From the NCBI RefSeq assembly GCF_030013205.1, contig NZ_CP122648.1: DNA of 64,000 nucleotides; one strand, given 5' to 3'. Shown in pieces: positions 7,053 to 7,263 of this stretch (positions are counted from its first letter, which is position 1; each line of letters opens with the position of its first letter). The notes below the pieces were generated by a model, which was given only the letters and a program-made list of their open reading frames with translations, made no database searches and had not been told where the DNA came from. The position numbers and the translations under genes were made by a program. The stretch is from Escherichia coli. GTDB taxonomy: Bacteria > Pseudomonadota > Gammaproteobacteria > Enterobacterales > Enterobacteriaceae.

Positions 7053-7263
7053 GTTTCACCGTCCATATTTCTTCAGGTTCATCGGGTTCCGCTACAGCTT
7101 CAACACTAGACACACTGCCGTCAGTGCTGACCAGCACACGCTCCGTCAGTTGCAGGTTAAGGCTGATATCACAGACATCGTTGCGCAAAATATCCACCTC
7201 AAAGGTGAATAACTTTTCCCGTAACAGAGTTAATGCTGCTGATAGCATCACGACGGCCTGCAC
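7045..7263 (-). pseudogene. Probable 5'-truncated tail completion protein R fragment
   Basis: Short ORF directly upstream of and overlapping S in the position R occupies in P2-like phages; its frame runs into the 3' end of the cII-like gene; assignment is positional. Confidence 0.35.

Follow-up and report, generated by a model that had tools for sequence, protein, structure and literature searches.

What occupies the join between the cII and R positions of a P2/186-like prophage in Escherichia coli: two small overlapping genes, or the scar of a deletion? The question is raised by a 64,000-nucleotide stretch of contig NZ_CP122648.1 (the window), in which a cII-like open reading frame (ORF) and an ORF of 72 amino acids (aa) overlap over exactly 7199–7263 on the minus strand, in different frames. 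A preliminary description of this DNA had judged the cII-like ORF to be short for a 186-type CII, had observed that its end overlaps, in another frame, an R-position ORF with no room for a full-length N terminus, and had proposed that an internal deletion removed the replication, capsid and lysis region in one event. Here we place the join to within five bases by comparison with intact relatives, and we hold it very probable that positions 7221–7225 are the scar that an internal deletion between two copies of the pentamer GTAAC left in a prophage of the 186 type (Peduoviridae, P2-like). The region is best read as one deletion scar with two flanking pseudogene fragments, not as two small genes.

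Each of the two ORFs, here called cII′ and R′, consists of a fragment of one gene followed or preceded by an out-of-frame reading of the other. In cII′, codons 1–132 (7220–7615; ending SINSVT) are native and are followed by six out-of-frame, R-derived codons (GKVIHL) and a stop codon at 7199–7201. The product, CII′, aligns without gaps to the CII proteins of phage 186 and of the prophage in strain ECCRA-119 (both 169 aa) up to residue 132, and it matches the Pfam profile PF06892 (Phage_CP76) with an E value of 1.2e-40 and 139 bits (cut-off, 26), its residues 10–135 covering positions 1–136 of the 146 in the profile. At 138 aa against 169 aa in the intact homologues, it is indeed shorter than a 186-type CII, which at full length (about 169 aa) includes the segment beyond residue 135 that 186 CII requires for its activity. 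PGAP labels it ‘phage regulatory CII family protein, missing C-terminus’, and we class it as a probable pseudogene of the PF06892 family, not as a functional member.

R′, which we aligned to the R proteins of ECCRA-119 and HCM-28C-2 and to 186 N (the homologue of P2 R), comprises the last 59 of the 143 codons of R (7045–7224/5; residues 85–143), preceded by 13 out-of-frame, cII-derived codons that include the GTG. Its match to PF06891 (P2_Phage_GpR; E = 3.1e-9, 37.5 bits, cut-off 25) is confined to profile positions 86–133 of 133; without the native N terminus and start codon it is not a complete GpR/186 N protein, and PGAP labels it ‘phage tail protein, missing N-terminus’. The loss of the N terminus and the position directly upstream of S are both as first described: the 3′ end of R′ overlaps the start of S by 8 bases. 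A TAA codon stands just upstream of the GTG in the frame of the R′ ORF. We considered R′ as a plausibly expressed gene and rejected it, given its GTG start, a nearest GGAG 12 nucleotides (nt) upstream and the missing native start. The fusion of the two genes is out of frame, base 7225 being the first base of a codon in cII and the third in R, and the pseudogene limits that PGAP sets in strain ETEC4067 correspond to window positions 7045–7224 and 7220–7615, with a 5-bp overlap. Neither ORF aligns over its full length to intact homologues.

The breakpoint was assigned to 7221–7225, the plus-strand pentamer GTAAC, using two reference prophages: that of ECCRA-119 (record L005), which is likewise inserted at rcdA, in the same orientation, and is complete (tail fibre, R, lysis, capsid, terminase, portal, A, fil, cII and int), and that of HCM-28C-2 (record L003), at ssrA. 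The FORC_082 prophage was rejected as a two-sided reference, being itself decayed with deletions of its own, and served for the cII side only; its cII site reads GTTAC in place of GTAAC, a synonymous change. Phage 186 was too diverged as a DNA-level reference for the breakpoint (about 77% identity in cII and no nucleotide match in R) and was used at the protein level instead. The R reference matches the window up to 7225 and the cII reference matches it from 7221 onward. Compared base by base, the window is 98% identical to the R reference over 7121–7220 and 29% identical over 7226–7325; for the cII reference these two intervals give 28% and 100%. Every base at the join is accounted for and nothing is inserted. 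Consistent positions came from two database searches, in which hundreds of records match one half of the junction and break off at the same bases: among phage genomes, cII-side matches begin at 7221 and R/S-side matches end at 7221–7225; among 5,426 complete E. coli genomes, cII-side matches begin at 7221 or 7224, and 7225 is the last base of the R-side matches. Alignment to intact relatives, which the preliminary description had proposed as a check together with a search for short direct repeats, thus shows cII homology stopping at 7221 and R homology starting at 7225.

GTAAC occurs at both parental breakpoints in the intact prophages of ECCRA-119 and HCM-28C-2 and once at the window junction. 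In ECCRA-119 the breakpoints fall within the R and cII genes. ECCRA-119 has 15,286 bp between its two parental sites and HCM-28C-2 has 13,769 bp, a difference that reflects cargo genes. The features discussed here are collected in Table 1.

Table 1. Features of the prophage remnant and of its deletion junction. Positions are those of the window unless a record is named (L001, ETEC4067; L005, ECCRA-119).
Feature	Position	Strand	Remarks
Acyltransferase-3 family membrane protein	1–1001	+	PF01757; gene begins about 54 bases before the window
Baseplate/tail-fibre block V-W-J-I′-H-G	1074–5567	−	ORFs and PGAP products; 95% identity to intact prophages
Gene I, disrupted	3178–3745	−	38-bp deletion near 3478–3484 relative to ECCRA-119
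FRG-domain gene	5653–6588	+	Pfam PF08867; PADLOC candidate defence family PDC-S15, E = 8.5e-32
S (virion morphogenesis/tail completion), intact	6603–7052	−	PF05069 (Phage_tail_S), positions 2–147 of 148, E = 2.6e-39; PGAP
R′	7045–7263	−	72 aa, GTG start at 7263; fragment of P2 R/186 N tail-completion gene
cII′	7199–7615	−	138 aa from the ATG matching the 186 cII start; a TTG start would give 7199–7621
Deletion junction	7221–7225		Single remaining GTAAC copy; R-derived DNA to the left, cII-derived DNA to the right
CII operator	7589–7615	−	ATGTTTG-N13-CAAACAT, ATGTTTGATTACCAAGTTTCCAAACAT; half-sites 20 bp apart, centre to centre
Apl/Cox-position gene	7648–7869	−	73 aa; precedes cII′ as the first gene of the early lytic operon
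CI immunity repressor, 186-type, intact	7989–8564	+	PF07022 and PF16452; PGAP start at window 7995
Integrase	8960–10012	+	Right end of remnant, beside rcdA; PGAP in ETEC4067 (L001 19961–21013)
att core TTTTTTGTTGCCT (probable)	10092–10104		13 bp; second copy at L001 9311–9323, outside the window, beside ogr/ybjL
Parental GTAAC sites in ECCRA-119	L005 4715–4719 and 20001–20005		R-side homology ends at 4719; cII-side homology starts at 20001

A repeat at both parental sites, one copy of which is kept with no insertion, is the structure of a short-homology deletion. Microhomology of at least 5 bp is expected at 0.46% (uniform model) to 0.54% (empirical sampling in the ECCRA-119 record) of random junctions. 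Extended patchy homology at the breakpoints was not significant, the 105-bp parental windows scoring 7.5, a value equalled or exceeded by 34% of random pairs, and no insertion sequence or recombinase gene is annotated beside the cII–R join in the carrier genomes inspected (ETEC4067 and W13-16). In the ancestor, cII in the early lytic operon and R in the late tail operon would have lain on the same strand, about 14–15 kb apart, with GTAAC in each. Illegitimate recombination, through slippage during replication or through break-and-join at short homology, would then have paired the two copies, dropping everything between them and leaving one GTAAC; judged by the junction structure, such a mechanism is the most likely. 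Short homology is not required for deletions in this element, because another join, between FI and D (described below), has 0 bp of microhomology. After the cII–R deletion, R′–S would have come to lie directly downstream of the pR–apl–cII′ early operon with the native late promoter lost, an arrangement that implies no function.

The size and content of the lost segment can be estimated from relatives, at about 14–15 kb. In ECCRA-119, the early side of the interval between the breakpoints holds the 3′ part of cII, together with fil, a set of small early genes and the genes for a DNA adenine methylase and the A replication endonuclease; its middle holds dinI/tum-region genes, cargo genes and cos; the packaging and head genes are those for portal, terminase, scaffold, major capsid, small terminase and head completion; and the lysis/tail side carries X, genes for holin, lysozyme and spanins, and the 5′ part of R. 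All three regions first proposed as deleted (replication, capsid and lysis) lie in this interval, and between R′ and cII′ no replication, packaging, capsid or lysis genes are annotated or detectable. A near-identical intact ancestor was not found among the 5,426 complete E. coli genomes, in which the best long-range identity is about 95%. For the 180 bp on either side of the join, 100% matches exist, but in different genomes. Over longer flanks the best intact relatives are 88–95% identical, with ECCRA-119 at 92.6% on the S–R side and 88.4% on the cII side. Module identities of 88–95% fit the mosaicism of P2-like phages, in which uneven identity across modules is known (PMC3448106).

The chromosome of ETEC4067, isolated from a pig in Belgium, matches window positions 5000–10100 at 100% identity. 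From the ybjL side, the order in that strain is ogr, D′ (partial), acyltransferase, G, H, I (frameshifted), J, W, V, the FRG-domain gene, S, R′, cII′, the Apl-position gene, cI, a small ORF, int and rcdA. With int at one end, the P2/186 gene order and the essential lytic modules absent, the element is a defective P2/186-like prophage. The rcdA/ybjL site is occupied by related prophages in three further strains (FORC_082, ECCRA-119 and E. coli B), in all of which the integrase has the same position. Chromosomal synteny is kept on both sides (potFGHI...ybjL / prophage / rcdA ybjJ ybjI), so the deletion was internal to the element. TTTTTTGTTGCCT is the longest exact repeat shared by the two prophage–chromosome boundaries in ETEC4067 (about 0.001 chance matches expected), and both att cores are probably still present. 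The remnant is incapable of replication, DNA packaging and cell lysis, and its SOS antirepressor region is gone; it has kept CI, the Apl-position gene, Int, a B/ogr-type activator, two cargo genes and genes for the baseplate and tail fibres. The protein at the Apl/Cox position has no Pfam match, and its putative function is assigned from its place with respect to CI and cII, which parallels that in 186; the identical protein (WP_001247707.1) occurs in the prophages that FORC_082 and E. coli B carry at this site.

Several accessory genes accompany the remnant. The FRG-domain gene sits in the intergenic slot between S and V, on the strand opposite to its neighbours. Elsewhere the slot holds a TIR-domain gene (FORC_082) or a DUF6216 gene (E. 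coli B), or is empty (ECCRA-119 and HCM-28C-2), and it looks like a variable cargo/defence hotspot of these prophages. The acyltransferase gene, between the tail-fibre assembly gene G and the sheath gene, is likely to be cargo, possibly for surface polysaccharide modification. Between cI and int lies an ORF of 63 aa (8580–8771, plus strand) with a hydrophobic N terminus and no Pfam match, annotated in W13-16 as ‘YdcA family protein’; the position is also occupied in FORC_082 and E. coli B, and in ECCRA-119 the cI–int interval holds an AAA ATPase gene, IS5 and another ORF instead. Elsewhere in the window, a RelE/ParE-family toxin and HTH antitoxin-like pair (21591–22296, plus strand) lies between rimO and dgcI, an interval from which it is absent in FORC_082, ECCRA-119 and E. 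coli B.

A 351-bp query across the junction was found at 100% identity in 14 of the 5,426 complete E. coli genomes, all 14 from pigs or wild boar and all ETEC strains or O139:H1; they include Belgian pig ETEC, a French wild-boar O139:H1 isolate (W13-16) and K_EC180 (swine). About 1,300 other genomes match only one half of the junction. Identity in 14 complete genomes indicates that the junction was inherited vertically within one lineage and is not an assembly artefact. Comparison of two carriers reveals further losses. W13-16 has the same junction and the same frameshifted I, and retains FI, FII, E, E′, a truncated T and D; its tape-measure gene T is truncated, U is missing and D directly follows T′. 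Relative to W13-16, ETEC4067 lacks 3,641 bp, a segment that takes in most of FI and extends ~20 nt into D. The resulting FI–D join, at L001 10732/10733 (about 270 bases left of the window start), has flanks that are 100% identical. Decay is therefore stepwise, the cII–R deletion being older than the FI–D deletion, and the latter overwrote the earlier T′–D junction, which shows that nesting occurs in this element. The cII–R deletion is thus not the sole decay event, the 38-bp loss in gene I being another; that loss explains the ‘frameshifted’ flag set by PGAP. A 7-bp overlap between the two BLAST pieces suggests a short direct repeat at the gene I join.

The operator at the start of cII′ is conserved relative to 186 positions 23435–23462, where the phage record marks the CII binding site for activation of pE. 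Phage 186 CII is a diverged homologue, the window and 186 cII genes aligning over 299 nt at 77% identity. As cited in PMC7708051, Murchland et al. found an engineered 186 CII of residues 1–145 (CII145) to be stable and fully active, and residues 1–135 (CII135), a natural proteolysis product, to be inactive. CII′, with 132 native residues, is probably inactive too, because the 1–135 fragment of 186 CII is inactive. It belongs to the same family as CII145 and CII135 and is likewise shortened at the C terminus, but it differs from both in being genomic, in ending three residues below the inactive CII135 and in carrying six foreign residues.

A single-event origin of the cII–R join is parsimonious and cannot be proved, because nested deletions occur elsewhere in the same element. 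Smaller, earlier losses might have preceded a later, spanning one that made the visible join: the 3,641-bp deletion in ETEC4067 did overwrite the T′–D junction seen in W13-16, and several independent internal deletions are found in the related prophages that share this site in FORC_082 and E. coli B. We nevertheless consider such a history unlikely, since no intermediate sharing one breakpoint was seen and all 14 carriers have the identical join, the half-matches in other genomes fall, wherever inspected, in genes without a partial flag, and one join with one repeat copy is the simplest history. An assembly or sequencing artefact has a negligible probability: the identical junction recurs in 14 complete genomes from different projects and countries, and we found no point in its support. 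Illegitimate recombination between two P2-like prophages, in tandem or at separate loci, could draw on the several P2/186-like elements that are common in an E. coli genome (median, two matching places) and on the unequal identity of the two flanks to ECCRA-119. It is very unlikely, however, as the element at both its ends, with the adjoining chromosome, is colinear with the rcdA–ybjL site of other strains, whether empty or occupied, both halves lie on the same strand in the order expected of a simple internal deletion, and uneven module identity is normal in this phage group (PMC3448106).

That both ORFs are native and functional, as a naturally short CII with a small R-like protein or as a purposeful fusion, is highly improbable. 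Both are open, cII′ retains its N-terminal region and its operator, and the junction is fully conserved in 14 genomes; yet Pfam homology stops mid-domain in both, the foreign tail of each is an out-of-frame reading of the other gene, and a 100% match among the 14 carriers is uninformative on selection. R′ moreover has neither its native start nor a closer GGAG than the one noted above, and the 135-residue fragment of 186 CII is inactive. We also give very little credence to a domesticated island, in which lethal functions are disabled, CI, the PDC-S15 gene, the acyltransferase and recombinable tail-fibre genes are kept, and in which, on derepression, a stable CII′ might interfere with the full-length CII of superinfecting 186-type phages, through mixed oligomers or operator competition, and so bias their lysis–lysogeny decision. 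Deletion between two GTAAC copies within one prophage remains our preferred reading.

The event is of a kind already known, namely ordinary prophage decay, and PGAP/RefSeq already marks both genes as partial pseudogenes; in the literature we found nothing specific on this remnant or its att site. It offers a clean, base-resolved case of the disabling of a 186-type prophage, with 5 bp of microhomology and about 14–15 kb removed, and the junction sequence could mark the lineage of pig-associated ETEC/O139:H1 carriers. Beyond correct annotation, its importance is small.

Among known systems, 186 (NC_001317) and the intact prophages of ECCRA-119 and HCM-28C-2 share with the remnant the order int-cI / apl-cII-fil-...-A-...-cos-...-lysis-R-S-V-W-J-I-H-G; the 186 record itself runs cI / apl-cII-fil-...-A-...-tum-cos-portal-terminase-capsid-lysis-N(R)-O(S)-.... 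The CII, S and R families, the CI type and the CII operator are common to all of them. The three are complete, with a CII of 169 aa and an R of 143–155 aa, whereas the window lacks the interval from cII codon 132 to R codon 85. FORC_082 has other deletions but a full-length cII.

The defective prophage of E. coli B (BL21 / T7 Express) is a close parallel. It occupies the same rcdA site in the same orientation, shares the identical WP_001247707.1, has CI, cII-family and integrase types like those of the remnant, and is 94% identical to the window in nucleotide sequence from cII to int. There, too, a 3′-cut cII is joined to a distant truncated gene and essential modules have been lost by internal deletion. 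Its breakpoints are independent, however: a cII of 93 codons is joined to a 5′-truncated replication endonuclease A gene (L008 12887–14332, in the E. coli B record), and a second deletion has fused the scaffold region with a lysozyme fragment, with R, S, terminase and portal surviving. The cargo differs as well, being a retron St85-family reverse transcriptase with its effector and DUF6216 in E. coli B, and the FRG-domain protein and acyltransferase in the window. Degeneration by deletion is a well-described pattern for cryptic or ‘grounded’ prophages, for which a review stresses the loss of excision functions (PMC6379469). Like grounded prophages, the remnant has lost lethal and replicative functions and kept immunity, integrase and cargo, in a stepwise decay that differs between strains; unlike the cases that the review emphasizes, it keeps its integrase, its Apl-position gene and probably both att sites, and has been disabled through the loss of replication, packaging and lysis.
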